64,000 nucleotides of DNA from an uncultured Chitinophagales bacterium. Its GTDB lineage: Bacteria; Bacteroidota; Ignavibacteria; UBA10030; UBA6906. Location of the stretch: positions 38,722-102,721 of the forward strand of contig CAYUFU010000002.1 of assembly GCA_964444145.1 (NCBI GenBank). Reading direction: 5' to 3'. This document shows, in pieces, positions 15,435 to 47,986 of the stretch (the stretch's first letter is position 1; each line of letters begins with the position of its first letter). The notes beneath the pieces were generated by a model. That model was not told the DNA's origin and did no database searches. It saw only the letters and a program-made list of their open reading frames with translations. Made by a program: the position numbers and the translations under genes.

Positions 15435-17051
15435 ATGCCAAACTCAAAAGACGAAAACAGAACCAAAGGCACCTTCAGCGACGTGCGCATGCCCGTCGCG
15501 AGAACATACATTAGACCGCTCTCGCGCAAGCTGATGATGACTCTCGGCGGCATTGTTTGTGGAGTCGTTGTTGCCTACTATGCCGTTGACTCCCTGCTGT
15601 TGAAGAATACATTCATTGCGAGCGGTCCGGTGGCGGCGAGCCACGCCAACTTCGAGAGCGAATGCGCGAAGTGCCATACGCCGTTCCGCGGCGTGAACGA
15701 TAGCAGGTGCACGACCTGTCATGAGAAGACGAACGACAAGTTGGGGGTATATTCCTTCGCCGCGCATTACCTGTACCGATCGGCAATGCCTGCGCGTATT
15801 GCCGATGCAAAGCAGAAACACGGCGCAGATGAGAAAATGTGCGCTGCTTGTCACCCCGATCATAAGGGACGCAACGCAAGCATCACCGTCGTGACAGATG
15901 CGAAATGCGCCACGTGCCACTACTCCTCGTTCAATGACGATCATCCTGAGTTTGAGTTTGCACGCACGAATGCCGTGGACGATTCGACCTTGAAGATGAC
16001 CCATGTAAAGCACACAAAAGAAGTATTGAAGGAACTTAATACGGCGAACATCGAAACCGCCTGTCTCTATTGCCACAATCCGATGGCGGATGGGAAAGCC
16101 TTCAAGCCGCTCGACTTCGACATGCACTGCGGCGATTGCCACCTCACGGCGAATACGGCATCCGCGTCGCTGACGATTCGCGACCCAAGCAATCCCAGTG
16201 CTCTCGGCGTCGAGACGTTGGAGATGATTCAACAACGAAGAGGTCCCGGCACGCGTTGGGCATTCTATACGAACCCAAACGAATTTACTATTACCGGCTC
16301 GCGCGTACAGAAAGCTCCCGTCTATCATCGCGATCCGTGGATTCTTGAAAACCTCAAAAGGATTCGCTCGATGCTCTACACGGAGGTCGGCCTCTCGGAT
16401 TTGTTGAATGCCGCAGGTGCCGGAGCGGAGAAGGGCAATCAGCAGTCGTATAACGAGGCGATTCAAACGCTCCGCGAGTATGTCACCGGCTTGCGCCCTC
16501 GTCCAGAAAAAGAAATTCAACAGGAGCTTACGACGATTGATTCCTTGTTGGATGTTGCGTCGCGCGTTGTGAATACGCCGGCAGTGACGCTCTCTGATTC
16601 GCTCTTTCGCATAACGGTGCGCATGGAAAACCCAAGCCTCACGGCGCAACAGAAGCAGGATATTTCGGATTTCGGCGAGAAGCTCGCGAAGCCGTGCCTC
16701 GAGTGTCATTACGTTGAGCGTGCGGCGATTCTTGGCGTGAAGGCGATCCAGCGAACGTTTTCGCGTGCCGAGTTCGATCATCGCGCGCATATTACGCAGC
16801 GCCGCTGCCTCGAATGCCATGACGTAATACCGATTGACGATGCGCTGTCGGACGATTCACTCGCAGTTACACGAGCCGCCGCGAAGATTCCGACGCTTGA
16901 TATCGCAGCGACACACAATATTCCGAAAAAAGAAAACTGCATCGAGTGTCATACAGCAGGCGCAGGGTCGAATGAATGCATCACATGCCACTTCATGCAT
17001 CCGAACAAAACGCAGCGCGGGAGTTTACAACTATTCGTTTCTAAGCCCTGA
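15435..17051 (+). CDS. Membrane-anchored decahaem c-type cytochrome
   Basis: N-terminal TM helix MMTLGGIVCGVVVAYYAV. Ten CXXCH motifs: CAKCH, CTTCH, CAACH, CATCH, CLYCH, CGDCH, CLECH x2, CIECH, CITCH. Confidence 0.85.
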   Translation: MPNSKDENRTKGTFSDVRMPVARTYIRPLSRKLMMTLGGIVCGVVVAYYAVDSLLLKNTFIASGPVAASHANFESECAKCHTPFRGVNDSRCTTCHEKTNDKLGVYSFAAHYLYRSAMPARIADAKQKHGADEKMCAACHPDHKGRNASITVVTDAKCATCHYSSFNDDHPEFEFARTNAVDDSTLKMTHVKHTKEVLKELNTANIETACLYCHNPMADGKAFKPLDFDMHCGDCHLTANTASASLTIRDPSNPSALGVETLEMIQQRRGPGTRWAFYTNPNEFTITGSRVQKAPVYHRDPWILENLKRIRSMLYTEVGLSDLLNAAGAGAEKGNQQSYNEAIQTLREYVTGLRPRPEKEIQQELTTIDSLLDVASRVVNTPAVTLSDSLFRITVRMENPSLTAQQKQDISDFGEKLAKPCLECHYVERAAILGVKAIQRTFSRAEFDHRAHITQRRCLECHDVIPIDDALSDDSLAVTRAAAKIPTLDIAATHNIPKKENCIECHTAGAGSNECITCHFMHPNKTQRGSLQLFVSKP

Positions 17052-30079: not shown

Positions 30080-30766
30080 ATGGGCATAATTGAGCGAAAA
30101 GAGCGAGAAAAGGAGATGCGTCGAGAGGAGATTATTGACGCTGCGCAGGAGATTTTCTTTACGAAGGGAATCGCGAACGCAACCATGGACGAGATCGCCG
30201 AAAAGGCGGAGTTGAGCAAAGGGACGCTCTACCTCTATTACAAGAGCAAGGAGGATTTGTATCTCGCCGTCGCGATGCGGGGCTCGGATATCATGTACAA
30301 GATGTTCGTCGACGCGACGCCGCTCACGAAGCCGACGTTGCAACGGATTTCCGATCTCGGCGAAGCCTACTTTGCGTTTTTCAACATGCACCGCGACTAT
30401 TTTCGCATGTATCAATACTTCGAGACTTCGCAGTTCCACAAGCAGGTCTCACCTGGAATGCTCAACCTCTGCGCGTCGCATGACGACAAAATTTGGCAAT
30501 TAGTCATCGGCTTGATTCAACAGGGCAAAGACGAAGGTCTCTTGCGAGACGACATTGATCCAGCCGAATCGGCGATCATCTTGTGGTCGAGCGGCAACGC
30601 GCTGATGCGGCAAATGGACCGCGACGACAAGTACTGGAAGGAGCACATGAAGATTGATTTGGAGAAGACGATGCGAAAGTCGTACGAGTTGTTACTCGAA
30701 GGGATGATGACAAAAAAAGGAAAGACAAAATTCCAATTACTTAAAGCCATGAAGGAGGCTGCATGA
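30080..30766 (+). CDS. TetR-family transcriptional regulator
   Basis: HTH region [44 protein letters not shown]. Confidence 0.85.
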
Positions 30767-32217
30767 TGGAGAAGCTATTTGCAATGGCACGGTATGAATC
30801 AAGCTCCAGAAGGAACACCACAACGAAGGCTGTCCACTGTGATTCAAGATTGTTCTTTACGCCATCTGCGGCTCAGGCATTGCGCATTCTTCTATGTGCT
30901 ACGGCGTTCTTGATAACAGGAACCAGCATGACCTTTGCTCAATCGCATCTCGCACTCACGGTCGAGAAAGCAATTCAACTTGCGCTCGAGAATAACAAAG
31001 CGCTCCACGCGTCGTTAATGCGATTGAACTACGCCGATGCGCGAGCATCGGAGGTGCATGCGTCACGTTTGCCATCAGTGAAGTTTACGGGCGCCTACAC
31101 GCGGCTGAGCGACGTCCCGCCGTTCACCGTGTCGTTACCGAACTCGTTGCCTGCGCCCTTCGGTGGTAGTTCGTTCACGCTCTCGCCAACCCTCGTCAAC
31201 AACTATACATTACGCGCGTCGGTAGAGCAGCCTCTGTTTACCGGCTTCAAGTTGGACGCCGCTGCTCGCGCCGCGGAGCTTAGTGCACGCGCCGCTGAAC
31301 AGGACCATGATAAAGAGAAAGCGGAGCTGATATACAATGTGCGCGTTGCGTATTGGTCGCTGTTCAAAGCTCTGGAGTTCCAGAAGCTGGTGGACGAGAA
31401 CGTCGAGCAAGTGAAAGCGCATCTGAACGATGTGGAGAAATTGATGGACCAAGGAATGGCGACCACGAACGATGTGCTGAAAGTGCAAGTGCAGTTGTCG
31501 GATGCACAACTTCGCCAGATAGAAACGCACAATAACGTGCAGCTTGCGATGATTGGTTTGAACAACCGGATGGGCATTGCGCTGCAAACGAGAATTAACA
31601 TCGAATCGGATATTCGTCACGATGTGCCGAAGCAGTACTCCGATTTGCGTACGCTCGTCGAGCGGGCACTCCAGAACCGCCCTGAGCTGAAGGCGATGGA
31701 CTTTCGCGTCAAGGCTGCAGAAGCGGGCGTGACTGCGGCGAAAGCGAATTGGTTTCCACAGGTTTATCTCGCGGCAAATTACAATTACAATCGGCCGAAT
31801 CAACGCATTCAACCTGTGCAGGATAATTTCAAGGATACCTGGGACGTCACACTGGGCGTCCAACTCGATGTGTGGAATTGGGGCAAGACGCTTCATCAAA
31901 CCGATCAAGCATCTGCGCAACTTGAAGAAGCGAAGGATGGCTTGGCACAACTGCGCGACGGTGTTACGCTTGAAATCACGCAGAGCTTTCTCACCCTCAG
32001 CCAAGCGAGAGAGCGCATACGAGTCGCAGAACAAGGCGCAACACAAGCCGAAGAGAGTTATCGCGTCACGAGCAAGCGTTTCAAAGAAGGGCTCGCGCAG
32101 AACACCGATGTGCTCGATGCGGAAATCGCGCTGCTGCAAGCTAAAACAAACTACACCCAAGCGCTCGTTGACTCTGAACTCGCTGAGGCACGATTGGAGA
32201 GGGCACTTGGAGAATAG
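30763..32217 (+). CDS. TolC-like outer-membrane efflux protein
   Basis: Two-repeat OEP architecture ([15 protein letters not shown] ... [17 protein letters not shown]). Signal peptide ...[22 protein letters not shown] suggests the real start is the in-frame TTG at 30880. Overlaps the TetR stop. Confidence 0.75.
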
Positions 32218-32337
32218 TGGCTTAAGCTTCAACGGCAAACTCTGAATAAGGCATAGGCGTTGGGCAATGCCTCTCCCCTCGGAGGGAGTTACGTCAAGGC
32301 GGGAAGTACAACGAATTTTGAAACCAACCAATCATCC

Positions 32338-33399
32338 ATGAGGAATAGTATGAGAAGGATAAAAGCAATAGCAATAAGCGTCATCGTTCTTGGCGCCATC
32401 GTCGGCGTGCTCTTGAACAATAAGGCGAGGATGCAGGCAAAGTCGAAAACCAACGTGCTCACGTCGTATCCCGTTTCCGTTGCGGCCGTGAGTGCGATGC
32501 AGTTGTCGGAAACGCTTTCGCTCACAGGGACGATTGCAGCAAACAGGGACGTTGCAATTGTCGCTGAGACACAGGGGCGTGTTGTTGGTGTGTACGCGAA
32601 TGTGGGTGATTTCAAGAACGCCGGAGCGACACTGGTGCGAGTTGACGACGAGCTGCGGAGAGCGGAGCTCATCAAGGCAGAAGTCAACTACGAGCGCGCG
32701 AAAAAGGACGCCGATCGCTTTTCGAAACTGCGTGATGAACATGCGGCGACCGAATGGCAAAAAGAAAACGCATGGCAAAGCTACAAGATCGCCGAAGCCG
32801 AGTACATTCGTGCGCGCAAAGCCTATCGCGATACGAAAATCAGCTCACCCATTGCAGGCGTGATTACGTCGCGCCCTGTTGACGTTGGAACGATGGTGCA
32901 GCCGGGGATGGTCGTTGCGAACGTCGTTGATATTTCAAAACTGAAAGTGAAGTTGAATGTTGCCGAGCAGGATGTGTTCAAACTAAAAGTCGGCGACCCT
33001 TTGGAAGTAACGACGGATGTGTACCCGGGAGTGAAGTTCAAGGGAAGGATCGCGAGCATCAGTTCGAAGGCGGATGAGTCACACACCTATCCAGTCGAAA
33101 TCACCTTGCCGAACAGCACAGAATATCCGCTGAAGGCCGGCATGTTTGGTCGCGTGAATTTTGTTTCGATGAAGTCATCGGAAGTGCTGACAATCCCGCG
33201 CGAGGCGCTCGTCGGCAGCATCAAGAGTCCGCAAGTGTTTGTCATTGAACACTCCGTTGCTAGGCTGCGTGACTTGGTTATCGGTTCACGCGTCGGGACG
33301 AATGTTGCCGTGCTGCAAGGTGTGAAGGAAGGTGAGACGATTGTGGTGAATGGACAGACGAATTTGAAGGACGGTGTTGTGGTCGAAGTCATGAAGTAG
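32338..33399 (+). CDS. Efflux RND periplasmic adaptor (membrane-fusion protein, HlyD family)
   Basis: MRNSMRRIKAIAISVIVLGAIVGVLL anchor. LTGTIAANRDVAIVAETQGRVVGV. Coiled-coil. SSPIAGVITSRPVDVGTMVQPGMVV. Confidence 0.85.
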   Translation: MRNSMRRIKAIAISVIVLGAIVGVLLNNKARMQAKSKTNVLTSYPVSVAAVSAMQLSETLSLTGTIAANRDVAIVAETQGRVVGVYANVGDFKNAGATLVRVDDELRRAELIKAEVNYERAKKDADRFSKLRDEHAATEWQKENAWQSYKIAEAEYIRARKAYRDTKISSPIAGVITSRPVDVGTMVQPGMVVANVVDISKLKVKLNVAEQDVFKLKVGDPLEVTTDVYPGVKFKGRIASISSKADESHTYPVEITLPNSTEYPLKAGMFGRVNFVSMKSSEVLTIPREALVGSIKSPQVFVIEHSVARLRDLVIGSRVGTNVAVLQGVKEGETIVVNGQTNLKDGVVVEVMK

Positions 33400-33490
33400 T
33401 CAAGAGTGATACCCGTGGAGTGTTCCTGTGTTCGAGACTTCAAAGTCCAGGCACTCTCAACTGAGACAATGCACGTGAAGGAAAAACGAA

Positions 33491-36400
33491 ATGACATTAA
33501 CTGAACTTGCCATAAAAAGACCAACCCTTATTGTCGTCATCTTTGCGGCGCTGACGGTTGTCGGACTTTTCAGTCTCGCGCAGCTCAAGTATGAGTTGCT
33601 TCCCAAAATCACCCCGCCGTTCATCACCGTCGTGACGGTGTATCCCGGCGCGTCGCCGCAGGAAGTGGAAACATCGGTGACGAAGCTTGTCGAGGATGCG
33701 GTATCGGGAATTGACAAAATCTCGACCGTGTTCAGCACGTCGGCAGAAGGCGTTTCGTTTGTCTCGATTGAATTCACCATGTCGGCGAACGTGAACGCCG
33801 CGCTGCAGGATGTACAGCGCAAGGTCAACGAAATCAGTGCGCGTCTCCCCGATGGCGCAAAGACGCCGACCGTTTCGAAATTCGCGCTCGACGAGATGCC
33901 GGTGCTTCGCATGGGGGTCACGTCAACGATGCCGTCGCGAGAATTTTACCAACTCGTGAAGGACAAAATCCAGCCGCGGCTCGCGAAAATCGCGGGGGTC
34001 GGACAAATCACGCTTGTCGGCGGCGACGAACGTGAAATCAGAGTGAACATTGATGCCCAGAAGCTGCGTTCGTACGGCCTTTCGCTGCTGCAAGTGATGC
34101 AAGCGATCAAAATGTCGAATCTCGATTTCCCGACGGGCAAAGTAAAGGAAGGCACACAACAATACATCGTGCGCATCGCAGGCAAGTTCACTTCGGTGGA
34201 TGGCTTGCGCGGGCTGGTGATCGCGCAATCACGACAGGGGGGCGACATCACGCTTTCGGACATTGCCGAAGTGGAAGACGGACAGAAAGAATATACACAA
34301 CTCAATCGCATTGACGGCAAGACTTCCATCGGCGTGCTCGTTTCGAAACAGTCCGACGCAAACACGGTAGACGTGAGCGCGTTGGTACGAAAAGAACTCC
34401 CGCGCATCGAAGAGACATTCCGCTCGGCGGGCGTGCGATTCGACGTTGCCCAGGACGGCTCGCGTTTCACGCTCGATGCGGCGAACGCCGTTAAGAAAGA
34501 TTTGGCAATTGCTATCGCGCTTGTTGCGCTTGTGATGCTGGCGTTTCTTCATAGCACGCGCAACTCCATCATCGTTATGCTTGCCATCCCCGCTTCGATG
34601 GTGTCAACGTTTATTGCAATGTATGCGTTCAACATGTCGCTCAACTTGATGACGCTGCTCGGTCTGTCGTTGGTCGTCGGCATCCTCGTTGATGATTCGA
34701 TCGTTGTGCTCGAAAACATTTATCGTCATTTGGAAAAGGGGCAGGATGGGAGAACCGCGTCCGTGACGGGGCGAAATGAGATCGGCTTTGCGGCTCTTTC
34801 GATTACGCTTGTGGACGTCGTCGTGTTCGTTCCGCTGGCGCTTGTTACAGGACTCGTCGGCAACATCATGCGCGAGTTCGCTCTCGTTGTTGTGTTCTCG
34901 ACGTTGATGAGCTTGTTCGTGTCGTTCACCGTGACGCCGATGCTTGCGTCGCGTTTTGCCAAGCTCGAGCATCTCACACGGAACAGTTTGCTGGGGCGAT
35001 TCGGCATCTGGTTTGAACGCATGTTCGAGAAGATCACTGCCGAGTATCTGCACATTCTCAAATGGTCGCTCGGCAATCGCGCAAAGATCGTCATGCTCAC
35101 CATTGCGCTCTTGCTTGCGTCGTTCGCGCTTGTGCCCCTTGGCTTCATCGGCTCCGAGTTCATCGAGGTTGCTGATCAGGGGGAGTTTGCGGTGACGATT
35201 GAACTGCCGTCAGGTTCGACGCTGGAGAATACAAACTTCGTCGCGCAGCAAGCAGAGCGGATGATTGCACAACTGCCCGAAGTGAAGAAGATGATTGTGA
35301 ACGTCGGGGTTTCGAGCGACGGATTTCTTGCGCAATCATCGAACAACATCGCAGAGTTGAATATCGCACTCGTCCCGAAAAAAGAACGTGTGCGATCAAC
35401 CGACGAGGTTTCCAATGAAATCAAGCGGCTCATCTCGCAAATCCCCGGAGCGAAGGTCCGCGCTAATCCGATCGGGATTTTTGGAACGGCAAACCAAACG
35501 CCGATTCAGCTCGTGGTGAGTGGACCGACCTACGATGATGCGCGGAAGGCAGCTTCACTGGTCGCGGGAGTAGTGGAGAAAATTCCGGGTACGGCAGACG
35601 TGCGACTGTCGTCCGAGGAAGGGAAGCCCGAAATACGTGTGGAGATTGACCGCCAGAAAATGGCGGCGCTTGGGCTGACGGTTGCGGAAGTCGGGCAAAC
35701 GCTGCGCGTCGCGTTCAACGGCGACGACGAGTCGAAATACCGCGAGGGTGCCAATGAATACACGATTCGCATTGTCTATGACCAGCTCGATCGTTCGCGT
35801 ACATCGGATATCGGCAGTGTGACGTTTATGAATCGGAAGGGCCAACTTGTGGAGCTGAAACAGTTTGCACACATATATCAGGCGACGGGACCGACGAAGT
35901 TGCAGCGGCAAGATCGGAACCCCTCGGTTACGGTGCTTGCTCAAGCGGTCGGTCGGCCGAGTGGAAGTATTGGCGAAGACATCAAGAGGGGCCTCGCAGG
36001 TTTGAATCTGTCGCCCGGTGTGCAGATTGCGTACAAAGGGGATTTGCAGAATCAGTCGGAAGGTTTCGAGAGTCTCGGTCTTGCGTTTGTGGCTGCGATC
36101 ATCTTCATGTATATGATTATGGTTGCGTTGTACGATTCGTACATCTATCCGTTCGTTGTGATGTTTTCGGTTCCCGTGGCGATGATTGGCGCGTTGCTTG
36201 CGCTTGCGCTCACGATGAAGTCGTTGAGCATTTTCTCGATTCTCGGCATCATCATGCTGGTTGGGCTTGTGGGGAAGAACGCGATACTTCTGGTGGATCG
36301 TGCGAATCAAACAAAGTCGGAACAGAAGCTCAGTACGTTCGATGCGCTGGTGGAAGCGGGCAATACTCGGTTGCGTCCGATTATGATGACGACGGTTGCA

Positions 36401-36646
36401 ATGGTGTTCGGCATGTTGCCGATTGCGATCAGCGCAGCGGCGGGTTCGGAGTGGAAAAGCGGACTCGCGTGGGCGCTTATTGGTGGTCTTATTAGTTCGT
36501 TGCTGCTCACGCTTGTGCTTGTGCCCGTCGTGTATTCGTATGTTGACGGGTTGCGTGAACGGATACCGGCATTGTTCAAACAGCTTTCGTGGACGAGGCG
36601 GATGAAGTTCAAGAAGGTGGTGGCGGAGTTGCAGCCGCAACCATAA
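33491..36646 (+). CDS. RND efflux permease (AcrB/HAE1 family, 1051 aa, 12 TM)
   Basis: MTLTELAIKRPTLIVVIFAALTVVGLFSLAQL. Duplicated TM bundles and large periplasmic loops. LGLSLVVGILVDDSIVVLENIYRH. Confidence 0.9.
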   Translation: MTLTELAIKRPTLIVVIFAALTVVGLFSLAQLKYELLPKITPPFITVVTVYPGASPQEVETSVTKLVEDAVSGIDKISTVFSTSAEGVSFVSIEFTMSANVNAALQDVQRKVNEISARLPDGAKTPTVSKFALDEMPVLRMGVTSTMPSREFYQLVKDKIQPRLAKIAGVGQITLVGGDEREIRVNIDAQKLRSYGLSLLQVMQAIKMSNLDFPTGKVKEGTQQYIVRIAGKFTSVDGLRGLVIAQSRQGGDITLSDIAEVEDGQKEYTQLNRIDGKTSIGVLVSKQSDANTVDVSALVRKELPRIEETFRSAGVRFDVAQDGSRFTLDAANAVKKDLAIAIALVALVMLAFLHSTRNSIIVMLAIPASMVSTFIAMYAFNMSLNLMTLLGLSLVVGILVDDSIVVLENIYRHLEKGQDGRTASVTGRNEIGFAALSITLVDVVVFVPLALVTGLVGNIMREFALVVVFSTLMSLFVSFTVTPMLASRFAKLEHLTRNSLLGRFGIWFERMFEKITAEYLHILKWSLGNRAKIVMLTIALLLASFALVPLGFIGSEFIEVADQGEFAVTIELPSGSTLENTNFVAQQAERMIAQLPEVKKMIVNVGVSSDGFLAQSSNNIAELNIALVPKKERVRSTDEVSNEIKRLISQIPGAKVRANPIGIFGTANQTPIQLVVSGPTYDDARKAASLVAGVVEKIPGTADVRLSSEEGKPEIRVEIDRQKMAALGLTVAEVGQTLRVAFNGDDESKYREGANEYTIRIVYDQLDRSRTSDIGSVTFMNRKGQLVELKQFAHIYQATGPTKLQRQDRNPSVTVLAQAVGRPSGSIGEDIKRGLAGLNLSPGVQIAYKGDLQNQSEGFESLGLAFVAAIIFMYMIMVALYDSYIYPFVVMFSVPVAMIGALLALALTMKSLSIFSILGIIMLVGLVGKNAILLVDRANQTKSEQKLSTFDALVEAGNTRLRPIMMTTVAMVFGMLPIAISAAAGSEWKSGLAWALIGGLISSLLLTLVLVPVVYSYVDGLRERIPALFKQLSWTRRMKFKKVVAELQPQP

Positions 36647-39425: not shown

Positions 39426-41693
39426 ATGAAGACAACAACAGCACTCCTCTTTTACACCATGCGTAAGAATTTCGCGATAGTTGCCTTTTCGTTTGCTGCG
39501 CTCACCCCGTTGTCTCACGCGCAGTTTCAGACGCCGCACAACGGCGGTAAAGCGGAACCCCATCACACACAGGTTCACCTTCTTGCAGCAGTCAAGTCCA
39601 TTCAACCGGGCGTCACCTTTGAAGTTGGCGTGTTGATGACTATGGATCAAGGTTGGCATACCTACTGGCAATACGCGGGTGAAGCCGGACTCCCGACTAA
39701 CATCGAATGGAAATTGCCCGAGGGGTTTTCTGCTGGTGAGATTCAATGGCCTCTGCCGAGCAAGTACAACGAAAGCGGCGACGTGCTGACCTACGGCTAT
39801 GCGGATGAAAACATGCTGCTCGTCCACATCACTCCTCCGTCAAACCTGTTGCCAAATTCACTCGTGAGTGTGAAAGCCAAAGTCAGTTGGCTCGAATGTG
39901 AAAAGCTGTGCGTTCCGGGAGATGCGGATGTTGAATTGAAACTGAAGGTTTCGACAGCCGAGCCTGAGACAGACAACGAAGCGCTGTTTGCAAAATATCG
40001 CGCTCGAATTCCAAAGCCGTTTGTTGCAAGCGAAGGGGTTTCGCTTTCAACATCCGCCAAGAACGGCAAGGTTGAGATACGGCTTGCGAGCGACGGCTCG
40101 CGGCAATTCGTCATCAAGCAAGGCGCCGTTCCTGATTTCTATCCGGCGGCATTCGGAGACCTGACCGTTGGAAGAACGCAAGTTGCTGCTCAGGCAAACA
40201 GTGCAACGATGACACTATCCCTCGCCGCTCTCGAAAAAGTTACCGAGCCGTTGACGTTACGCGGCGTTGTCATGTATCAGGTCGAGGGGGGTGAGGAAAC
40301 AGGCGCAACAGTAGAGGTTCCGCTCTCGAGCGAATTTCTTGCGACGATTCCCCTCGACGGTGCGCCTGCACCGCAACCAGGCGGCAGTTTGCTCGACCAA
40401 CCATTCACAACACTTGCGTCGGAGCAAGGCGAGCAGCCACTCTATGTCTATGTGTTCTTTGCCGTCATTGGTGGGTTGATCCTGAACATCATGCCGTGCG
40501 TTCTGCCGGTCATCTCGCTCAAGGTCTTTGGATTGATGAAGATGGCAGGCGATGAACCGAAGGAAGTGAAAAAGTCGGGATGGTTTTTTTCGCTCGGCAT
40601 TCTCGCCTCGTTTCTCGCGCTGGCGGTAATTGTTGTTGCGCTGAAATCTGCCGGCTCGCTCGTCGGGTGGGGATTTCAGTTTCAGGAGCCGCTGTTCGTT
40701 ATCGCGATGACGGTGGTGGTCTTCGCGTTCGGGTTGAGCTTGTTCGGCGTGTATGAAATTGCAGTTCCTCAGTTTTTGATGCGGAGCGCAAAGAGGTCGG
40801 ATGAACAGAAAGGCTTTCTTGCGCCGTTCTCCGAGGGAATTTTCGCAACCATTCTGGCGACTCCCTGCACCGCCCCGATTCTCGGAACGGCGCTCGGCTT
40901 CGCGTTCTCTCAACCCGCGGCAATCATCCTCTTGATTTTTGCGGCGACGGCGTTCGGCATGGCATTGCCGTATCTCATCCTCACGGCAAAACCGGAGTGG
41001 ATGAGATTTCTTCCCAAGCCGGGCAATTGGATGGTTGCCGCAAAGCAATTCATGGGCTTCCTCATGATGGCGACTGCAGTCTGGCTGTTGTACATTCTCG
41101 GAAAACAATTGGGGATGGAAGCCGTCGTCTGGACGATGGCATTTCTTCTTGTCGTCGGAGTCTCTTGCTGGCTGATCGGTACCTTCGCAACGCTGACGGC
41201 GACGCGCCGAACGTATTTTGCAACGTGGGCAGCGGCACTGCTGCTGGTAATCGTTGGCTACAACCTCTTCATTGGCGATGTGATGAAAGCGAAAGAGTTG
41301 CTGTCGAGTTCGGAGACTGCTCGCACTGCAACGAGCGAAGGTGGAATCATCTGGGAGCCTTTCACACTCGACCGACTCGAAACACATCTCAAAGAAAACA
41401 GGTCTGTCTTCATTGACTTCACCGCCGAGTGGTGTCTCACATGTAAAGTGAATGAGAAAACAGTTCTGGCGGACAAAGAGGTGTTGAACGCGCTCAAGCA
41501 ACGCAACATCATGACGATGAAAGCCGACTGGACGAACCGCAACGAAACGATTACGCGCCTGCTGCAAAAATTCGGACGCTCGGGCGTGCCGTTGTATGTG
41601 TTGTTTCCCGCAGGCAAACCCACCGAGCCGATTGTACTGCCGGAAGTGATTACGCCGAGCATCGTGCTGGAAGCGGTGAAGCGGGCGGGATGA
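39426..41693 (+). CDS. dsbD: Thiol:disulfide interchange protein DsbD (DsbD-alpha, CcdA-like TM core and C-terminal thioredoxin)
   Basis: Signal peptide MKTTTALLFYTMRKNFAIVAFSFAALTPLSHA. TM core motif LNIMPCVLPVISLKV and second Cys region ATPCTAPILGT. C-terminal FTAEWCLTCKVNE (CxxC thioredoxin). ORF-track start 39246 rejected. Confidence 0.85.
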   Translation: MKTTTALLFYTMRKNFAIVAFSFAALTPLSHAQFQTPHNGGKAEPHHTQVHLLAAVKSIQPGVTFEVGVLMTMDQGWHTYWQYAGEAGLPTNIEWKLPEGFSAGEIQWPLPSKYNESGDVLTYGYADENMLLVHITPPSNLLPNSLVSVKAKVSWLECEKLCVPGDADVELKLKVSTAEPETDNEALFAKYRARIPKPFVASEGVSLSTSAKNGKVEIRLASDGSRQFVIKQGAVPDFYPAAFGDLTVGRTQVAAQANSATMTLSLAALEKVTEPLTLRGVVMYQVEGGEETGATVEVPLSSEFLATIPLDGAPAPQPGGSLLDQPFTTLASEQGEQPLYVYVFFAVIGGLILNIMPCVLPVISLKVFGLMKMAGDEPKEVKKSGWFFSLGILASFLALAVIVVALKSAGSLVGWGFQFQEPLFVIAMTVVVFAFGLSLFGVYEIAVPQFLMRSAKRSDEQKGFLAPFSEGIFATILATPCTAPILGTALGFAFSQPAAIILLIFAATAFGMALPYLILTAKPEWMRFLPKPGNWMVAAKQFMGFLMMATAVWLLYILGKQLGMEAVVWTMAFLLVVGVSCWLIGTFATLTATRRTYFATWAAALLLVIVGYNLFIGDVMKAKELLSSSETARTATSEGGIIWEPFTLDRLETHLKENRSVFIDFTAEWCLTCKVNEKTVLADKEVLNALKQRNIMTMKADWTNRNETITRLLQKFGRSGVPLYVLFPAGKPTEPIVLPEVITPSIVLEAVKRAG

Positions 41694-41815
41694 AGTGCGG
41701 ACCGCTACGGGGAGGTGATGAAATCGTTCCGTGACGTTTTCGTGAAAATCTCTTCGTACATTCTTCTCGTATTTTAGGGAGAATCCAACCCACTCATTCC
41801 CAAAGGGACAACCAC

Positions 41816-44278
41816 ATGAACATTTTCTCTCGCTATTTCAATTGGCTGCAAAAAGGAAACCCAACGGGTCTCGTTGACCGCTTTCCCGAGATTGACGAGA
41901 AGGGGGAAACGTCCGTTAAGGGTATTTACGTCATCGGCGACTTGACGGGAATTCCACTCCTGAAACTTGCGGCAGAGAGCGGCAAGAAAATCATTGATAC
42001 CTTTGACGCGGATGCGCAATTTCAATCGCAGCGAAAATCAATGGCCGCTGATTATGATATTGTGATTGTCGGCGGGGGAATTTCTGGAATTTCTGCCGCC
42101 ATCGAGGCGCTGAAGCGAGGGTACAAATTCATTGTGCTCGAATCGGCGCAGAGGTTTTCCACCGTCATCAACTTTCCCAAGGGCAAGCCGATCTACTCCG
42201 AGCCGGCATCGGTGCAGCAGCACGCCGCGCTGAAAATCAATGACGGCACAAAAGAAAGCCTGCTCTGTGATTTAGAGAAGCAAATCGCAAACCTCCAGCT
42301 TCCGGTGAGCGAAGGGGAGATGGTTGACGTCATCAAGAAAACAGGAGACGTTTTTGAAGTTGTATCGAAGAAGGGAACGTACAGGGCGTATCGCGTCATA
42401 CTTGCGATCGGCAAATCGGGGAACGCGAGAATGTTGGGCGTGAAAGGAGAACACCTTCCGAAGGTGTTCAATCGTCTGTTCGATCCCAACGATCACCACA
42501 ACGAGGAAGTGCTTGTTGTCGGCGGCGGCGATTCGGCAATCGAAACGGCGAACGCAATCGCAGACGTCGGCAATCACGTAACGATTTCCTATCGCAAGGC
42601 GGAGTTTGCACGACCGAAAGAAGGCAACGTCGAAAAGCTGAACGCACTCGTTGCCGCCGGCAAGATTTCGTTGCTGATGGAATCGCAAGTGCAGGAGATT
42701 CGCGAGAAGGAGGTCGTGCTCAAGACGACAAACGGCGCTAGGACAATCAAGAATGACGCCGTCTATGCAATGATTGGACGCGAGCTGCCTCTCGACTTCT
42801 TCCGCCGCAGCGGGATCAAACTCAGCGGCGAGCTAACGACAGAAAGCAAACTCTGGATTGCGCTTGCGCTCCTCTTTTCCGGCGTCATCTATTTCGGCAA
42901 GAGCGCCGACCTACAACTGCTGACGGGGGGAGTAAAATTCCAATCGTATGGAGAAATAGTTTCCTTTCTCTTCAGCGGCGAGTTCTGGTCGAACTTCTTC
43001 GCGCTTCCCGCGACGATTGTTCAGACATCGAAGGATTGGTCAGCGCTGCTAAAAACTGCCATCGCCTATCTCTCGTTCATCGGAACAATTGTGTTGAGCA
43101 TTTGGGCGCTGACTATTGTTGTGAAGCGGGCATCATCGCTGTTCGCAACCTCCTGGAATGTGTTCAAGTATTCCTACTTCGCTGCTGCGATGATGCTCTT
43201 CTGCGTGGCGTTCTTCGGCAGCAAGTATTTCGATTACAACATGCTCGGCAAGCAGCCCAGCTTTTGGTATTCGTTCCTCTACACCACGACGATCGTTGCG
43301 TTCGGGTTGCGCCGCATGTACGTGAAACCGACGCGCTACATCAAACTGCAAACCTGGTCGCTGATGTTGATTCAGGCGATTCCGCTCTTTCTGCTGCCTG
43401 AAATTATTTTCCCCGCGCTGCACAAAGCGAACCTAATGCACCCATGGTTGATTGAGAATGTGTTCCCGCCATACTCCGCCGGTGGCGAGCCGACGTTCTG
43501 GCGCGCGTACGGATTGATTCTCGCGTGGCCCCTGTTCATCTCCAATCTCGTCTATGGTCAGCCGACAACGGCGTGGCTCGTGCTCTCGCTCGTGCAAACG
43601 TTCGTCATCATTCCGTGGATCGTAGTCAAGTGGGGGAAAGGCGCATACTGCGGATGGATTTGTTCCTGCGGCGCAATGGCGGAAACGCTTGGCGACGAGT
43701 ACAGAAAAACCGCGCTGCACGGACCGAAGCCGAAGAAGTGGGAGAACATGGGACAGATTGTGTTGTTCTCAGTTTTCATCGTCACTGCTGCCGCGTTGCT
43801 TACGTCGTACTTCGACAAAGAACTCTCGTGGCTCAACTTCTCCACGTTCAACGCGCAGGCGGTGAAAGTCTACTCGATTATCGTTGATATTATTTTTGCA
43901 GGCGTGCTCGGCGTTGGGGTCTATTTCTTTTTCAGCGGCCGCGTCTGGTGCCGCTTCCTGTGCCCGCTCGCGGCGCTGATGCAGATCTATGCGCGCTTCA
44001 CCCGCTACAGAATTTTTGCCGACAAGAAGAAGTGCATCTCGTGCAACATCTGCACGAGCGTGTGCCACATGGGGATTGACGTGATGAGCTTTGCGAACAA
44101 AGGCATCCCGATGAACGACGTGGAATGCGTTCGCTGTTCAGCCTGCGTCGTGAATTGCCCGATGGAAGTGTTGAGCTTTGGCGAGCTGCCGAAGAGCGAT
44201 CCCAACAACAAATCGTATCAGAATCTCAACCTGAAAGAGCACATGCTGACGAAAGAAGATTGGCGGAGCGGGCTGTAG
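41816..44278 (+). CDS. Fusion of an FAD/NAD(P)-dependent pyridine-nucleotide-disulfide-type oxidoreductase with a NapH/MauN-like polytopic membrane domain and two C-terminal [4Fe-4S] motifs
   Basis: DYDIVIVGGGISGISAAIEA and EVLVVGGGDSAIETANAI (two Rossmann sites). Then ~8 TM helices containing CGWICSCGAMAE (NapH-family CxxxCxxG signature). Then CISCNICTSVCHMG and CVRCSACVVNCP. The flavoprotein part is paralogous to 19702-22047 (shared R/N-F-P-K-G-G/K block). Confidence 0.75.
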   Translation: MNIFSRYFNWLQKGNPTGLVDRFPEIDEKGETSVKGIYVIGDLTGIPLLKLAAESGKKIIDTFDADAQFQSQRKSMAADYDIVIVGGGISGISAAIEALKRGYKFIVLESAQRFSTVINFPKGKPIYSEPASVQQHAALKINDGTKESLLCDLEKQIANLQLPVSEGEMVDVIKKTGDVFEVVSKKGTYRAYRVILAIGKSGNARMLGVKGEHLPKVFNRLFDPNDHHNEEVLVVGGGDSAIETANAIADVGNHVTISYRKAEFARPKEGNVEKLNALVAAGKISLLMESQVQEIREKEVVLKTTNGARTIKNDAVYAMIGRELPLDFFRRSGIKLSGELTTESKLWIALALLFSGVIYFGKSADLQLLTGGVKFQSYGEIVSFLFSGEFWSNFFALPATIVQTSKDWSALLKTAIAYLSFIGTIVLSIWALTIVVKRASSLFATSWNVFKYSYFAAAMMLFCVAFFGSKYFDYNMLGKQPSFWYSFLYTTTIVAFGLRRMYVKPTRYIKLQTWSLMLIQAIPLFLLPEIIFPALHKANLMHPWLIENVFPPYSAGGEPTFWRAYGLILAWPLFISNLVYGQPTTAWLVLSLVQTFVIIPWIVVKWGKGAYCGWICSCGAMAETLGDEYRKTALHGPKPKKWENMGQIVLFSVFIVTAAALLTSYFDKELSWLNFSTFNAQAVKVYSIIVDIIFAGVLGVGVYFFFSGRVWCRFLCPLAALMQIYARFTRYRIFADKKKCISCNICTSVCHMGIDVMSFANKGIPMNDVECVRCSACVVNCPMEVLSFGELPKSDPNNKSYQNLNLKEHMLTKEDWRSGL

Positions 44279-44490: not shown

Positions 44491-45582
44491 TCAAAATGCC
44501 TCCTCAATCGTGAAATACACACCCGAAGAACTCTTCGACGCGAACGCGACATCGAGGCGAATGTTGACTTTGTCTTGCGGAGAAATCGAATAGCGCAGCC
44601 CAGCGCCCACGGAATATTTCATCTCGGACACTCGGAATGCGCTTGCGGCTGAAGCAACGTCGCCCGTTCCGACGAAACCTGCCAACCCGAAACGCGCCAC
44701 GAGAGGGAAACGATATTCACCCTGAAGTTCAATCATGTGCTGATCGCGAAAGCGACCCTCGTACAGCCCACGCATTCTGTACGAGCCGCCGAGCGCCGCG
44801 AGCCTCTGAAAGGGCGGAGCGCCTGACGAAAACCTTCCGTATGCTTGGACTGCAATCACCTGCGCATCGGCTACGGCAAGAAAGCCTCTGGCATCAATCG
44901 TGTACGCGCCGAACTCAAAGTCGCTGCCGAGCGTTCGCGGATAGAGCGTTGCCGTCCCTTCGATGAACGCGCCCGAAGACGACGAGAAGACATTATCGCG
45001 AGAATCGAACGTCGCAACGACGCCGTAGCCGACGATCGAACCGCCAAATGTTCCATTGATGTTCTGCGTTGCAAGTATCCCGCCCGCCTTGGTCTCTCTC
45101 AAGCGCTGATGTTCATAATCGAGAAGGATGCCCGCTCGCGCCCGCTCGACGAGGGTTCGTTGCATCTTGAGTATCGCTCGGATGCGGTCTGCGCTGTACT
45201 CTTCTTCTGCGATGTTCGGGGTCGCGTTCCCAATGCCGTAAAACTTGTCGGCGAACTGAGCGAACGAAAGCTCGGCAGAAACTTTCCAGCGTGCGTTGTC
45301 GAAATACAAATCAGGGGAGAGTTGAACGAGGAATTGCTTGCGCGTGGTGTAGGCGAGCGTTGCGCGTGCAGCGGAAGGCGGAATCGAATCGGGCGCATGC
45401 TCGCTGCGAAAATAGTACGCGCCGAAGACGCCGAGCGCGAGTTTTGTTTCAGGTGAATACGAAACGATAGGGAGAAGGACGAGGTTGTCTCGGGACTTCG
45501 TCGTCGAATCAATCTCTGCTGCTTGGGCAAACGAGACTAATGCTGTCAGCAGAAAAAGTGAGACGCGGCAGGGGCAAAACAC
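44491..45582 (-). CDS. Omp85/bacterial-surface-antigen (D15) family outer-membrane beta-barrel (barrel only, no POTRA)
   Basis: Signal peptide ...VSLFLLTALVSFAQA. Barrel strands throughout. C-terminus GVYFTIEEAF (terminal Phe). Start is uncertain (non-ATG); the ORF-track N-terminal 55 aa are Arg-rich and rejected. Confidence 0.6.
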   Translation of the reverse strand: MFCPCRVSLFLLTALVSFAQAAEIDSTTKSRDNLVLLPIVSYSPETKLALGVFGAYYFRSEHAPDSIPPSAARATLAYTTRKQFLVQLSPDLYFDNARWKVSAELSFAQFADKFYGIGNATPNIAEEEYSADRIRAILKMQRTLVERARAGILLDYEHQRLRETKAGGILATQNINGTFGGSIVGYGVVATFDSRDNVFSSSSGAFIEGTATLYPRTLGSDFEFGAYTIDARGFLAVADAQVIAVQAYGRFSSGAPPFQRLAALGGSYRMRGLYEGRFRDQHMIELQGEYRFPLVARFGLAGFVGTGDVASAASAFRVSEMKYSVGAGLRYSISPQDKVNIRLDVAFASKSSSGVYFTIEEAF

Positions 45583-45662
45583 CGCCTTTGTCAAACGAGT
45601 CTCCCGACTCGTCGCTCGACAACGAGAGCGCCGGGACGGGAGTCCCGCGCAACGATGTACCC

Positions 45663-47048
45663 TCATTTGTTTGCCGCGAATTCTGCCAACACGACTTGCC
45701 CTTGATGAGCGCCGTTGCCGTTCGAGCGCTCCGCTTGCAGTTGCTCCCACTTCTCCTTCGCCTGCCTTCTAACAGGGTCGAACTCTCTTTCTTCTCCGTT
45801 CACAACAACTTTGAATTTGCGCGTGATGTACTTGTCGCGGTCGGCGTTGTGCAAGCACATGGACATCGGACCTTCGGACGTCATCGTCATGAACGAGCAG
45901 TTGTCAATTCGTTCCTGCACGAGACACTCGGCGTGCATGAAGTTGTGAATGACGAAACTCAGCTTATTCACTCTGAATCCGCTTCTCAGTAAATCCCCTT
46001 TCATTCGCCATGCGTGAACGCCAATGAAGCGTAGCCCCTTTACCAGCGCCTTGGGTCGTGTCAGCACACGCCACGCTGCCTGCTGCACCGCACGCCTTGG
46101 ATTCCCTCTATCGAGCACGAGTCCGTCAAATTGTTTTGCCATGTAGTTGATGATCGAAGGATCCCACCACAGATCGTATACATGCCCGTTGCAAACAAAT
46201 GAATAACCGATGCGGTTGCAGTCCGGATGGCCGACGTCGAATGCATCGAAGTTGATCTGTGCGCCGAGGGCTTCGTTGATGATGCGGATGATGTTGCGCG
46301 GCTCGATTTCATCGGGACGACCTTTCAGAACTCCACGTCCCGTGTCGGCATGAAGTTGGAAGCTGCACATGCCGACGACGTCGCAATGGTCGCGGAAGAA
46401 TCTCACGAGCATCGGCACTTCGTGAAAGTTCTCTTTGCACAGTGTGGTGTTGAAAACGACCGCAATCCCTAATCCGCGTGCACGTTCAATGTATTCCTTT
46501 CGAACGGCGTTAAGCTCTTCTTCACTTGCGTAGTATGTTTTGTCCGGCTTACGGAGCCGCTGCGTCATATCAACGTGGAAGGCGACATCGGTAAGCCCGA
46601 CGCGAGCAAGTTTCGTGAGCAGCGCGCGCGTCGCCTTGATGCCGTTCGTCAGCAGCGCGGGCTGTAAACCAATGGAGCGGCAATAGCGCACAATCTCGAT
46701 CAACTCCTCCTCGTTGCGCAGCGTCGGATCGCCGCCGCTGATTTGCACATCGGTGCGGGGTCCATAGTTGAGAAGAATCTCGTTCGCACGGCGTTTCACC
46801 TCTTCCATCGGAATATCAAGGGTCTCCTCGCTCATCTCACTCAAGTAGCAGAGCGTGCAGTCGAGATTACAGCGTTGCGTAATCTCGAGGGAGACACAGC
46901 CGATGCCCGTCCGTTGTCCCAACGCCTGATTCTCGGTCCTGAATTGTGGGGAGAGTCGCGCCCACGTTCGGGCTTGTGCTTCCTTTGTCGTGGGGACGCG
47001 TTTACCGTCAATGTGGTCCGGTGAGATCAGTGGCAGGGGTTTGTCCAT
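45663..47048 (-). CDS. Radical SAM domain protein (~460 aa)
   Basis: CNLDCTLCY (CxxxCxxC) 60 aa from the start at ATG 47048, then SGGDPTL. Subfamily not assignable. Confidence 0.75.
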   Translation of the reverse strand: MDKPLPLISPDHIDGKRVPTTKEAQARTWARLSPQFRTENQALGQRTGIGCVSLEITQRCNLDCTLCYLSEMSEETLDIPMEEVKRRANEILLNYGPRTDVQISGGDPTLRNEEELIEIVRYCRSIGLQPALLTNGIKATRALLTKLARVGLTDVAFHVDMTQRLRKPDKTYYASEEELNAVRKEYIERARGLGIAVVFNTTLCKENFHEVPMLVRFFRDHCDVVGMCSFQLHADTGRGVLKGRPDEIEPRNIIRIINEALGAQINFDAFDVGHPDCNRIGYSFVCNGHVYDLWWDPSIINYMAKQFDGLVLDRGNPRRAVQQAAWRVLTRPKALVKGLRFIGVHAWRMKGDLLRSGFRVNKLSFVIHNFMHAECLVQERIDNCSFMTMTSEGPMSMCLHNADRDKYITRKFKVVVNGEEREFDPVRRQAKEKWEQLQAERSNGNGAHQGQVVLAEFAANK

Positions 47049-47227
47049 GAATGTGCCTCGTTGAAAAAAGAACAGTTGTGGAACGCATTGTACAGACTCT
47101 GTCACGGTACGTTGAGAACGTTACGGATCCCTCGCCCTTCCGCTCATGCCCACCCACCAAGAGGCGTCACTGCCCGACTCCGGTGAGAGAAGAAGAACTC
47201 CACTCTCAGAAGGGGCAACGGTGTGCG

Positions 47228-47986
47228 TTACCGATAGTACAGTCGCGCCAGCTCCTTCGGATGCGCGCCCATTTTGTACTTCAGTTGCAAATATAGATTC
47301 CCGCACGTTCGTTTCAAATAGCCATCCGCTTCGAAGCGCCTTGCAGATGTGAACACCGGGATGTCCAACACCTCGAATCCGTCAAGCTTATTCAAGCGTT
47401 GTACAAGTTCCATATCTTCCATGAGCGGATAATCGTCGCGGTAGCCGCCAAGTCGCTCGAACAAATTCCGTTTCAGAAAAATCGCTTGGTCGCCAAAGGG
47501 GAGTTTCCCGTACTTTGCGCGCAGCCGCACATAGCACTCAAGGTAGCGATAGACGAGCCTTCTGTGGTCGACGCGGAATTCGAACGCTCCCGATTGCAGA
47601 GAAGGATCTGCGCGCACCAGTCGCACAAATTGTTGAAGAGACTGTTCCGGCAGAATCGTATCGGCGTGAAGGAAGATGAGCCACTCGCCTTTCGCTTCCG
47701 CCGCGCCTGCGTTCATTTGCTTGGATCGGCTTTTTGCCGAACGCACGAGTCGGACGTTGGCATGATGCAACCGCAGTTCTTCGATGCGTTCGGTCGTTCC
47801 GTCGGTACTTCCACCGTCGGCAAAAATAAGTTCGGCGTTCTGCAAGCCGATGAGCGAGGTGGAGACTCGCTGGACATTTGCTGCCTCATTCAACGTCGGT
47901 ACAACGATAGAGACAAAGGGTTGACGAGACTCCTTCTCCACACCCGTGGGGACGGCAACTTGTTCCGACGAGGGCGCGCCGTGCAT
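47228..47986 (-). CDS. Family-2 glycosyltransferase
   Basis: FVSIVVPTLNEAANV and LIFADGGSTDGT (DxD-type GT-A). The start ATG shares its A with the TAA of the upstream DUF547 gene. Confidence 0.8.
   Translation of the reverse strand: MHGAPSSEQVAVPTGVEKESRQPFVSIVVPTLNEAANVQRVSTSLIGLQNAELIFADGGSTDGTTERIEELRLHHANVRLVRSAKSRSKQMNAGAAEAKGEWLIFLHADTILPEQSLQQFVRLVRADPSLQSGAFEFRVDHRRLVYRYLECYVRLRAKYGKLPFGDQAIFLKRNLFERLGGYRDDYPLMEDMELVQRLNKLDGFEVLDIPVFTSARRFEADGYLKRTCGNLYLQLKYKMGAHPKELARLYYR

Follow-up and report, generated by a model that had tools for sequence, protein, structure and literature searches.

The window analysed here, a 64,000-nucleotide stretch of contig CAYUFU010000002.1 from an uncultured Chitinophagales bacterium (assembly GCA_964444145.1), carries two consecutive open reading frames (ORFs) on the plus strand. 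ORF A encodes a DsbD-family protein and ORF B, the main subject of this work, encodes a fusion protein in which a permuted flavoprotein is joined to a NapH-like membrane core and a [4Fe-4S] ferredoxin-type domain. All coordinates are window positions, and residue numbers refer to the 820-residue ORF B unless stated. Pfam analysis of ORF B revealed Pyr_redox_3 and Pyr_redox_2 over residues 80-343, two Fer4_5 matches and a Fer4 dicluster at residues 733-786. Read directly from the DNA, the motifs are GIYVIGDLTG at residues 36-45 (nt 41921-41950), GGGISG at 86-91, GGGDSA at 236-241 and CGWICSC at 612-618. A preliminary description of this DNA had proposed that a flavoprotein is joined to a NapH-like domain carrying two C-terminal [4Fe-4S] motifs; this was borne out by the Pfam and NCBIfam matches and the Cys motifs, and the ORF coordinates and motif strings given in it were all read back at the expected positions.

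Comparison with NCBIfam found the membrane part of ORF B to match both NapH and NosR families, at scores that do not reach the cut-offs: 62.3 bits over residues 569-788 for the NapH/MauN model TIGR02163 (E 5e-17, cut-off 213.05), 49.8 bits for the NapH model NF007013 (cut-off 234) and 41.8 bits over residues 597-779 for the NosR model NF046105 (E 4.5e-11, cut-off 1000). The same holds for the flavoprotein part, with 144 bits against the YpdA/Bdr model TIGR04018 (cut-off 339.9) and 77 bits against the thioredoxin reductase (TrxR) model TIGR01292 (cut-off 343). No model in Pfam or NCBIfam covers the whole of ORF B, and an Rfam scan of the region gave no matches. The features of the fusion gene and of the other genes discussed are listed in Table 1.

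Table 1. Position of the fusion gene, its parts and other features in the window (TM, transmembrane helix)
Feature	Position	Strand	Evidence or remark
ORF B, fusion protein, 820 residues: permuted NADPH flavoprotein, 8 predicted TM (NapH-like core), 2x[4Fe-4S]	41816-44278	+	
Residues 1-76, transposed C-terminal piece of the FAD domain: beta-strand, GD motif, helix, ahead of the first Rossmann motif	41816-42043	+	
Residues 77-341, FAD and NAD(P)H Rossmann domains, YpdA/TrxR type; GGGISG 86-91, GGGDSA 236-241	42044-42838	+	
Residues 342-472, three extra TM (342-361, 408-437, 447-472), amphipathic stretch between	42839-43231	+	
Residues 481-728, NapH/NosR-type membrane core, TM 481-503, 507-537, 585-606, 637-666, 680-705	43256-43999	+	
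Cys motif 1, CGWICSC (C612, C616, C618), cytoplasmic loop after TM6	43649-43669	+	invariant in 41-sequence alignment
Cys motif 2, CRFLCP (C712, C716), canonical CX3CP, cytoplasmic end of TM8	43949-43966	+	
Residues 733-790, 2x[4Fe-4S] ferredoxin-type domain	44012-44185	+	Pfam Fer4_10, Fer4_9, Fer4_21
Terminator-like hairpin (GCGACTCTCTGAGTCGC) followed by a T-run, 8 nt past the ORF B stop codon	44286-44312	+	
ORF A, DsbD-family thiol:disulfide reductase, 755 residues	39426-41693	+	Pfam, Cys pairs
Spacer between DsbD gene and fusion gene, 122 nt	41694-41815	+	no terminator-like hairpin found
Omp85-superfamily protein, last gene of the convergent block	44491-45750	-	Pfam Omp85; syntenic in L002
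Radical SAM protein, not ArsS, distantly TrsS/Tes-like	45663-47105	-	Pfam Radical_SAM; NCBIfam 89 and 77 bits, far below cut-off
TIGR04283 glycosyltransferase ('arsenosugar biosynthesis glycosyltransferase' in NCBIfam)	47228-47986	-	231.7 bits, cut-off 182
Exported DUF547 protein, signal peptide, C159-x4-C164-P165	47986-48786	-	PF04784 79.7 bits, cut-off 27
Three multihaem c-type cytochrome ORFs with 10, 3 and 10 CXXCH	7291-11004, 11410-12588, 15435-17051	+	

The hallmarks of a two-dinucleotide-binding flavoprotein are all present in ORF B, namely the FAD GxGxxG, the NAD(P)H GxGxxG/A and the GD motif, with the GD motif transposed to the N-terminus. The flavoprotein models and the Bdr structures (7a7b and 7a76) align with residues 81-337 only, which correspond to positions 1 to about 265 of about 320, and because these alignments end there, the C-terminal GD-motif segment is missing after residue 337. 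On residues 80-340 the YpdA, TrxR and Pyr_redox models likewise end near position 264 of 316. In glutathione reductase chains, residues 297-336, the GD-motif region, align to ORF B residues 23-61. An un-permuted construct was made by placing residues 19-76 after residues 77-340, with a shuffled segment as control. Un-permuting raised the TIGR04018 score from 145.1 to 158.8 bits (shuffled, 147.5) and extended the model coverage from 1-263 to 1-288; the TrxR score rose from 75.4 to 90.8 bits (shuffled, 75.1) and the glutathione reductase score from 53.5 to 71.5 bits (shuffled, 52.4).

Few parts of the fusion protein are as well conserved as the N-terminal segment: in an alignment of 41 sequences, Y7, F8, W10, Q12, G18, P24, T32, S33, G36, G41, D42, L43 and G45 are invariant. 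The AlphaFold2 (AF2) model has a strand at residues 37-39 and a helix at 46-65 (pLDDT about 87-91), and both the secondary structure and the pLDDT support the predicted packing of residues 1-76 against the FAD domain. In those 50%-identity representatives whose N-terminus is intact, which include sequences as little as 31% identical, xTSVxGhhhhGDLxGxPLLK precedes GxGxxG, and none of the representatives examined has a GD motif after the NAD(P)H domain. The permuted order, suggested in the preliminary description by the position of the GD-type FAD motif ahead of the GGG motifs, can be regarded as real and as family-wide among the relatives examined, given the un-permuting scores and the order in the relatives. 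With the GD segment moved to the N-terminus, the C-terminus of the flavodomain is left free to run into the membrane. The family is a clean natural case of a two-Rossmann flavoprotein re-threaded to permit fusion to a membrane domain.

The closest relatives of residues 77-341 by fold and sequence are PDB 7a7b, 7a76, 2zbw and 3ab1, and the best PDB matches of residues 81-337 are the Bdr/YpdA entries 7a7b and 7a76. The segment SYRKAEFAR (SYRK...R, residues 258-266) aligns with the NADPH-binding strand of Bdr, and S258, R260 and R266 are invariant; it is the likely 2'-phosphate site, and on the strength of this alignment the enzyme is expected to prefer NADPH. The active-site Cys of Bdr (GGGPCG) is replaced by Ser in GGGISG, and the family consensus is GAGPAG, with Ser or Ala at this place. 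The sole Cys of residues 1-341, C151, lies outside the invariant and near-invariant columns, and there is no CxxC. In composition the flavodomain resembles the Cys-free TrxR-type ferredoxin-NADP+ reductases among its fold matches (3ab1, 3lzw and 2zbw). The best model and structure matches (YpdA/Bdr and TrxR), together with the public name 'thioredoxin reductase' carried by some homologues, would fit a membrane-tethered reductase of low-molecular-weight thiols or protein disulfides, but the scores are far below both cut-offs and the cysteines such an enzyme would use for catalysis are absent, which largely refutes this possibility and leaves it hardly credible. As read from its residues, the flavodomain is not a disulfide reductase, since it has no redox-active Cys.

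The preliminary description also took the flavodomain to be a paralogue of the flavoprotein encoded at 19702-22047. The two do belong to the same superfamily; however, they share only 26% identity over 200 residues (pairwise E 8e-4) and the GD motif of the other protein is normally placed, so that closer kinship did not hold. That protein, encoded on the plus strand, has 781 residues and an unusual architecture, with a YpdA-like Pyr_redox part (GD motif at its residues 334-346), two FHA domains and a C-terminal 2Fe-2S ferredoxin.

The topology of the membrane part was predicted from the AF2 helices, hydropathy and the positive-inside distribution. Eight TMs are predicted with both ends inside, which places the flavodomain, both Cys motifs and both Fe-S motifs in the cytoplasm, and the K/R-rich junctions at 437-438, 499-510 and 605-641 agree with this arrangement. 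The mean pLDDT of the model is 69.5, with values of 70-85 in the TM region and below 50 in the Fe-S domain. The NapH-like core spans residues 480-795 in the alignments of the representative search. The three extra helices ahead of it (residues 342-472) match no family and are missing from shorter family members, as representatives of 671-760 residues align only from about residue 480 on. A broken helix at residues 561-579 is probably re-entrant.

The first Cys motif has the form CX3C[SG]C and not the CX3CP of NapH, and this form is kept in distant representatives and in the split NapH-like proteins described below. The clade signature is C-x-W-h-C-[SG]-C ... C-R-[FY]-x-C-P-L, with five cysteines as against the two CX3CP motifs of NapH. 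The ferredoxin-type domain has two CX2CX2CX3C motifs (C740/743/746/750 and C771/774/777/781), all eight cysteines of which are invariant. Mean identity is highest in the cytoplasmic Cys loop (0.90), followed by the C-terminal domain (0.77), and lowest in the periplasmic loops (0.20-0.47). No Cys and no periplasmic domain or cofactor motif was found in the periplasmic loops of the predicted topology. Transfer of reducing equivalents across the membrane, as had been proposed for the protein, is not evident from a fusion whose cofactor motifs are predicted to be cytoplasmic and whose periplasmic loops are poorly conserved and Cys-free. When the whole model was compared with the PDB by Foldseek, all matches were to flavoproteins; phmmer with residues 341-820 against the PDB matched generic 2x[4Fe-4S] domains alone, and no solved structure of the NapH/NosR type was among the matches.

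The protein collection was found to contain more than 2800 homologues, and 149 representatives at the 50% identity level reached E<=1e-30. We collected 80 full-length genome loci, collinear with residues 1-820 at 45-88% identity; every one of the 80, and every long representative, has both halves in a single fused gene. The preliminary description would have been contradicted by a membrane part unlike NapH/NosR-type families or by separate genes for the halves in all relatives, and neither was observed. The closest locus, at 88% identity, is from an Ignavibacteriota metagenome-assembled genome (MAG). Ignavibacteriota and Melioribacteraceae members are 55-59% identical, those of Fibrobacterota and Chitinivibrionales about 50%, and those of Lentisphaerae, Myxococcales, Scalindua, Chrysiogenales and some MAGs labelled Candidate Phyla Radiation (CPR; loci L070, L076 and L079) 45-48%. 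Hence the window copy is an ordinary member of a large, widespread and uncharacterised family. Its public names are generic or misleading and include 'thioredoxin reductase', 'NAD(P)-binding domain-containing protein' and 'NosR/NirI family transcriptional regulator', the first and last of which are misleading as annotation. Our literature search found no description of the fusion architecture, the permutation or the link to ArsS and DUF547, although subscription journals were poorly covered and an earlier description is possible. The parts consulted of a survey of NapH-like proteins (eLife, PMC8238504) do not mention a cytoplasmic Pyr_redox fusion. One apparent literature match, PMC13416013, was rejected as it concerns strain NaphS2 and naphthalene.

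ORF A, numbered here by its own residues, starts with a signal peptide and a long DsbD_N region, which are followed by a TM domain and a thioredoxin-like domain, with Pfam matches to DsbD_N (59-171), DsbD_TM (342-555) and Thioredoxin_7 (650-729). All three Cys pairs of DsbD are kept (C158/C162, C358/C481 and C670-x2-C673). Its score against NF001419, the E. coli-type DsbD model, is 145 bits, under the cut-off of 330. The periplasmic N-terminal region is about 330 residues long, about twice the usual length (window 39426-40420), and residues from about 172 to 330, after DsbD_N, have no Pfam family match. Domains and Cys pairs mark ORF A as a genuine and complete DsbD, as the preliminary description had it.

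That description further suggested that DsbD and the fusion protein form a pair, one moving reducing equivalents across the membrane as thiols and the other through Fe-S, which may serve the maturation or reduction of the periplasmic haem proteins encoded nearby. The two genes lie on the same strand, and as the short spacer between them holds no terminator-like hairpin, co-transcription is possible. In tblastn searches with the window DsbD, a DsbD gene adjoined the fusion gene in the three closest relatives (L001-L003), and none was found within flanks of up to 10 kb at the other 77 fusion loci. Even among those three the spacer varies, being about 528 nt in L001, 105 nt in L002 and 53 nt in L003. 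The proposal that NapH-like proteins act as transmembrane electron conduits (PMC8238504) would suit such a pair, as would the exported redox proteins that neighbour the fusion gene in other lineages (DUF547 proteins with CX4CP, and MsrA or MsrAB with signal or lipoprotein peptides), which leave some chance of a periplasm-directed function. Against it stand the rarity of the adjacency, the variable spacer and the poorly conserved periplasmic side of the fusion protein. The multihaem ORFs lie more than 22 kb upstream, with an RND efflux operon and further unrelated genes in between, and the neighbours examined included no cytochrome-maturation genes. Neither the pairing nor the service to haem proteins was supported, and we consider such an export route improbable. 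By the distribution of the gene, DsbD adjacency is taken to be lineage-specific and incidental to the fusion family. The efflux operon (30080-36646, plus strand) begins with a TetR regulator, followed by genes for an outer-membrane factor, an HlyD-type adaptor and an AcrB-type pump.

All ORFs flanking the 80 fusion loci were clustered, and the clusters were confirmed with Pfam and NCBIfam. The most frequent neighbour is DUF547 (33 of 80 loci), followed by the radical SAM protein ArsS (TIGR04167; 27), an AhpD-like 'peroxidase-like' protein (TIGR04169; 26) and a fused TIGR04283 and TIGR04282 glycosyltransferase (24). We refer to these four as the system genes; the recurrent copies score above their NCBIfam cut-offs, and almost all the DUF547 neighbours have a signal peptide and a conserved CX4CP motif. 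Of the 80 loci, 43, from several phyla, carry one or more of the four; among the 41 loci flanked by 5 kb or more on each side, the number is 24. In 12 Ignavibacteriota-type loci the gap to the next system gene is only -15 to +31 nt. The linkage persists in Fibrobacterota, where 12 of 15 loci carry system genes in a different gene order. In Ignavibacterium album JCM 16511, a cultured organism, the orthologue lies at 2,265,582-2,268,062 of CP003418.1 (reverse strand), and after it on one strand come genes for GT2/CofC-DUF2064, DUF547, CMD, radical SAM with DUF3641, and GT2; after this GT2 come MptA_B on the opposite strand, 6PGD/gnd-like, zwf, pgl and glucokinase genes. We conclude from gene order that the conserved partner of the fusion gene is this set, of TIGR04283/TIGR04282 glycosyltransferase, exported DUF547, AhpD-like and ArsS-type radical SAM proteins, and not DsbD.

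Other recurrent neighbours are an AglJ-like glycosyltransferase (15 of 80 loci) and genes of the oxidative pentose-phosphate pathway, found in 16 loci (zwf in 15, pgl in 12 and gnd in 10). In L005, L009, L013, L014, L019, L022, L023, L032, L058 and others, gnd-like, zwf and pgl genes lie directly downstream of the fusion gene, and some of the loci with these genes have no ArsS-type gene close by. MsrA or MsrAB occurs in 13 loci, in seven of them divergently and within about 400 nt. These seven (L006, L010, L013, L014, L018, L040 and L055) belong to Ignavibacteriota and Fibrobacteria, with the MsrA or MsrAB gene 155-410 nt upstream of the fusion gene, an arrangement that hints at shared, possibly oxidative-stress, regulation. 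The MsrA neighbours mostly have signal or lipoprotein peptides, the L018 copy having none. In the CPR-labelled MAGs, a gene pair of similar size follows the fusion gene in L076 (12340-14164) and L079 (12366-14322); the L076 pair encodes a NUDIX hydrolase and a GT87-like membrane glycosyltransferase, and L079 has a TIGR04283/TIGR04282-type glycosyltransferase gene 2.7 kb downstream of the fusion gene. An apparent 1797-residue 'Rosetta-stone' mega-fusion in L061 was rejected, as it is an SbcC/SMC-like gene with an ORF that extends backwards across the fusion gene.

In the window itself, genes for a TIGR04283 glycosyltransferase, a DUF547 protein and an alternative radical SAM protein sit 1.4-4.5 kb downstream of the fusion gene on the opposite strand, in a block that ends with an Omp85-superfamily gene. 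Of the 'arsenosugar-type' set, the glycosyltransferase and DUF547 are present and ArsS and TIGR04169 are absent; the block is a variant of the set with neither ArsS nor the AhpD-like gene. The block behaves like an insertable cassette: L002 is fully syntenic, and the close relative L056 lacks all four genes.

The linkage was also examined from the other side, by searching metagenomes with a DUF547 alignment, which gave 80 loci, 41 of them of at least 5 kb. Near DUF547 were ArsS in 14 loci, the glycosyltransferase of the TIGR04283/TIGR04282 type in 11, the peroxidase-like protein in 10 and a NapH-like protein in five. A radical SAM gene of the window type (29-31% identity) directly follows DUF547 in three loci (L103, L117 and L143), which suggests that a second radical SAM family is tied to DUF547; L117 has it together with ArsS. 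The NapH-like proteins of the five loci (L092, L130, L146, L150 and L151) are 514-532 residues long where complete, score 66 bits against TIGR02163, share 26-36% identity with the fusion core and carry the shared signature CSWVCGC...CRFGCPL. In all five loci the NapH-like gene is immediately preceded by a separate flavoprotein gene of 432-449 codons, of the NirB/NorW/ferredoxin-reductase type and with normal motif order, whose product has no detectable similarity to the fusion flavodomain (blastp E 0.12). The unit of an NAD(P)H flavoprotein and a NapH-like protein of this clade has thus been assembled at least twice within one type of gene context, once by fusion and once by adjacency. No other observation speaks as strongly for the two halves forming one electron chain and for that chain serving this gene set. 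The cluster in L130 (11-7188), and also in the other four loci, comprises genes for an Fnr/Crp regulator, a rhodanese, DUF547, a NirB/NorW-type flavoprotein, a NapH-like protein and two glycosyltransferases. The rhodanese matches NF045521, 'rhoda_near_glyco' (180 bits, cut-off 145), the glycosyltransferases are a Glyco_tranf_2_3 protein of about 490 residues and an AglJ-like one, and in L146 a Methyltransf_11 gene adjoins DUF547.

These data suggest that ORF B may be a single-polypeptide, membrane-anchored electron-input enzyme that acts as a dedicated reductase module for the glycosyltransferase/DUF547/radical SAM system, a reading drawn from motifs and gene order whose chances we judge to be about even. 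In such an enzyme NADPH would reduce the FAD of the permuted flavodomain, and electrons would pass from FAD through the two ferredoxin-type [4Fe-4S] clusters to the five cysteines at the membrane face (CX3CSC plus CX3CP), a site that could hold a third cluster or act as a dithiol. From this site they would reach an acceptor in or on the membrane, which might be the cluster of the radical SAM protein, a lipid-linked intermediate, or one of the set's thiol or selenol proteins. More tentatively, the family could be an unrecognised class of membrane redox enzymes, the physiological NADPH-driven reductases of an uncharacterised envelope biosynthetic system made up of glycosyltransferases, DUF547, AhpD-like and ArsS- or Tes-like radical SAM proteins.

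Several observations weigh against a dedicated reductase of this kind. In 37 of the 80 loci no system gene is present in the flanks examined and the neighbours are unrelated (peptidase, PrkA, PhyH, histidine kinase and amidase genes, for example), so the enzyme may act independently. Many of the loci come from related Ignavibacteriota, and the counts are not counts of independent events. The system genes of the window are convergent with the fusion gene and not co-transcribed with it, tblastn found no match to ArsS (TIGR04167) or to the TIGR04169 AhpD-like gene in the 64-kb window, and L056, for all its closeness, has the fusion gene without the block. A polytopic domain with a conserved Cys site at the membrane face seems needless merely for reducing a soluble radical SAM protein. 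Finally, the AF2 model is poor over the Fe-S region (pLDDT below 50), which limits estimates of the distances between cofactors.

The loci without a conserved partner suggest autonomy and bring in the main rival, a stand-alone NADPH:menaquinone oxidoreductase in which electrons would run from FAD through the Fe-S clusters to a NapH-type domain that reduces quinone, opposite in direction to the quinol dehydrogenation of NapH. Such an enzyme would feed NADPH from the pentose-phosphate pathway into respiration, or keep quinones reduced as an antioxidant measure. The polypeptide holds every part needed, and NapH, which the membrane core matches, is annotated as a quinol dehydrogenase subunit. The zwf, gnd and pgl neighbours, found in some loci with no system gene, point the same way, and the MsrA, AhpD-like and DsbD neighbours fit a theme of oxidative stress. 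However, no quinone site was identified in ORF B, and a quinone reductase leaves unexplained both the tight operon linkage to glycosyltransferase, DUF547 and radical SAM genes in several phyla and the existence of the split pair. The family is also present in the three CPR-labelled MAGs; organisms of this radiation generally lack quinones. Weighing both sides, we hold quinone reduction to be possible but rather doubtful. The chain could in principle also run backwards, as NapH-type proteins oxidise quinol, with electrons driven uphill through the Fe-S clusters and FAD to NADPH. Transfer from menaquinol in that direction is thermodynamically uphill, ORF B has no coupling-ion module, and the NADPH-producing neighbour genes argue that NADPH is the donor, so that reverse operation is very improbable.

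NapH/NosR-type membrane Fe-S proteins are common, and their electron source and route are poorly understood. With an explicit NADPH-oxidising flavoprotein on a NapH/NosR core, both the direction in which electrons flow and what the Cys motifs do can be tested in one polypeptide, for which Ignavibacterium album is a cultured source. The link to the 'arsenosugar-type' set of radical SAM, glycosyltransferase and DUF547 genes adds a missing redox component to a widespread system whose product is known only from cyanobacteria. If the dedicated reductase is real, it would be a membrane-tethered electron donor for radical SAM or chalcogen/arsenic chemistry at the membrane, and it would give NapH-type modules their first defined cytoplasmic electron source.

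Among known systems, ORF A shares with DsbD the three-domain architecture and all six catalytic cysteines, and differs in its longer N-terminal region and in a score below the cut-off of the E. coli-type subfamily. On scores, motifs, domain set and context, ORF B falls outside NapH, NosR, YpdA/Bdr and TrxR, and shares parts with them all. YpdA/Bdr and the TrxR-type ferredoxin-NADP+ reductases are the nearest relatives of residues 77-341, and the latter likewise have no CxxC. These relatives are soluble dimers, whereas the flavodomain of ORF B is permuted, fused to a membrane domain and without the Bdr Cys, with scores below the cut-offs. With NapH/MauN, ORF B has in common a polytopic core, Cys motifs at the cytoplasmic ends of helices and a cytoplasmic 2x[4Fe-4S] domain after them. 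In contrast to NapH/MauN, it has eight TMs and not four, CX3CSC in place of CX3CP as its first motif and an N-terminal NADPH flavoprotein of 340 residues. No Nap, Mau or Nos gene was identified by Pfam or NCBIfam among the neighbours examined, and the operon context of a NapG-type ferredoxin and a terminal reductase was not seen among those at 30-52 kb, which are the TetR/RND efflux operon and genes for a TPR protein, EamA, SpoU, DsbD, an Omp85-like protein, radical SAM, glycosyltransferase, DUF547, DnaQ and pgi.

NosR/NirI and PceC-type NapH-like proteins (PMC8238504) carry a covalently flavinylated FMN_bind domain in the periplasm. They resemble ORF B in having the same membrane and Fe-S core with an N-terminal flavin domain, and their proposed role is to connect a pool of electrons with a partner enzyme. 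Their flavin domain is a periplasmic FMN_bind, whereas that of ORF B is a predicted cytoplasmic FAD/NAD(P)H two-Rossmann domain; Pfam gave no FMN_bind match in ORF B, the N-terminus being Pyr_redox. The split pairs have the NapH-like clade signature, 33% identity to the fusion core and the same surroundings of DUF547, GT2 and ArsS genes; they differ in being two genes and in having a non-permuted flavoprotein not detectably related to the fusion flavodomain. The ORF B family is best described as membrane Fe-S proteins of the NapH/NosR type that carry a new input domain, a permuted NADPH flavoprotein on the cytoplasmic side.

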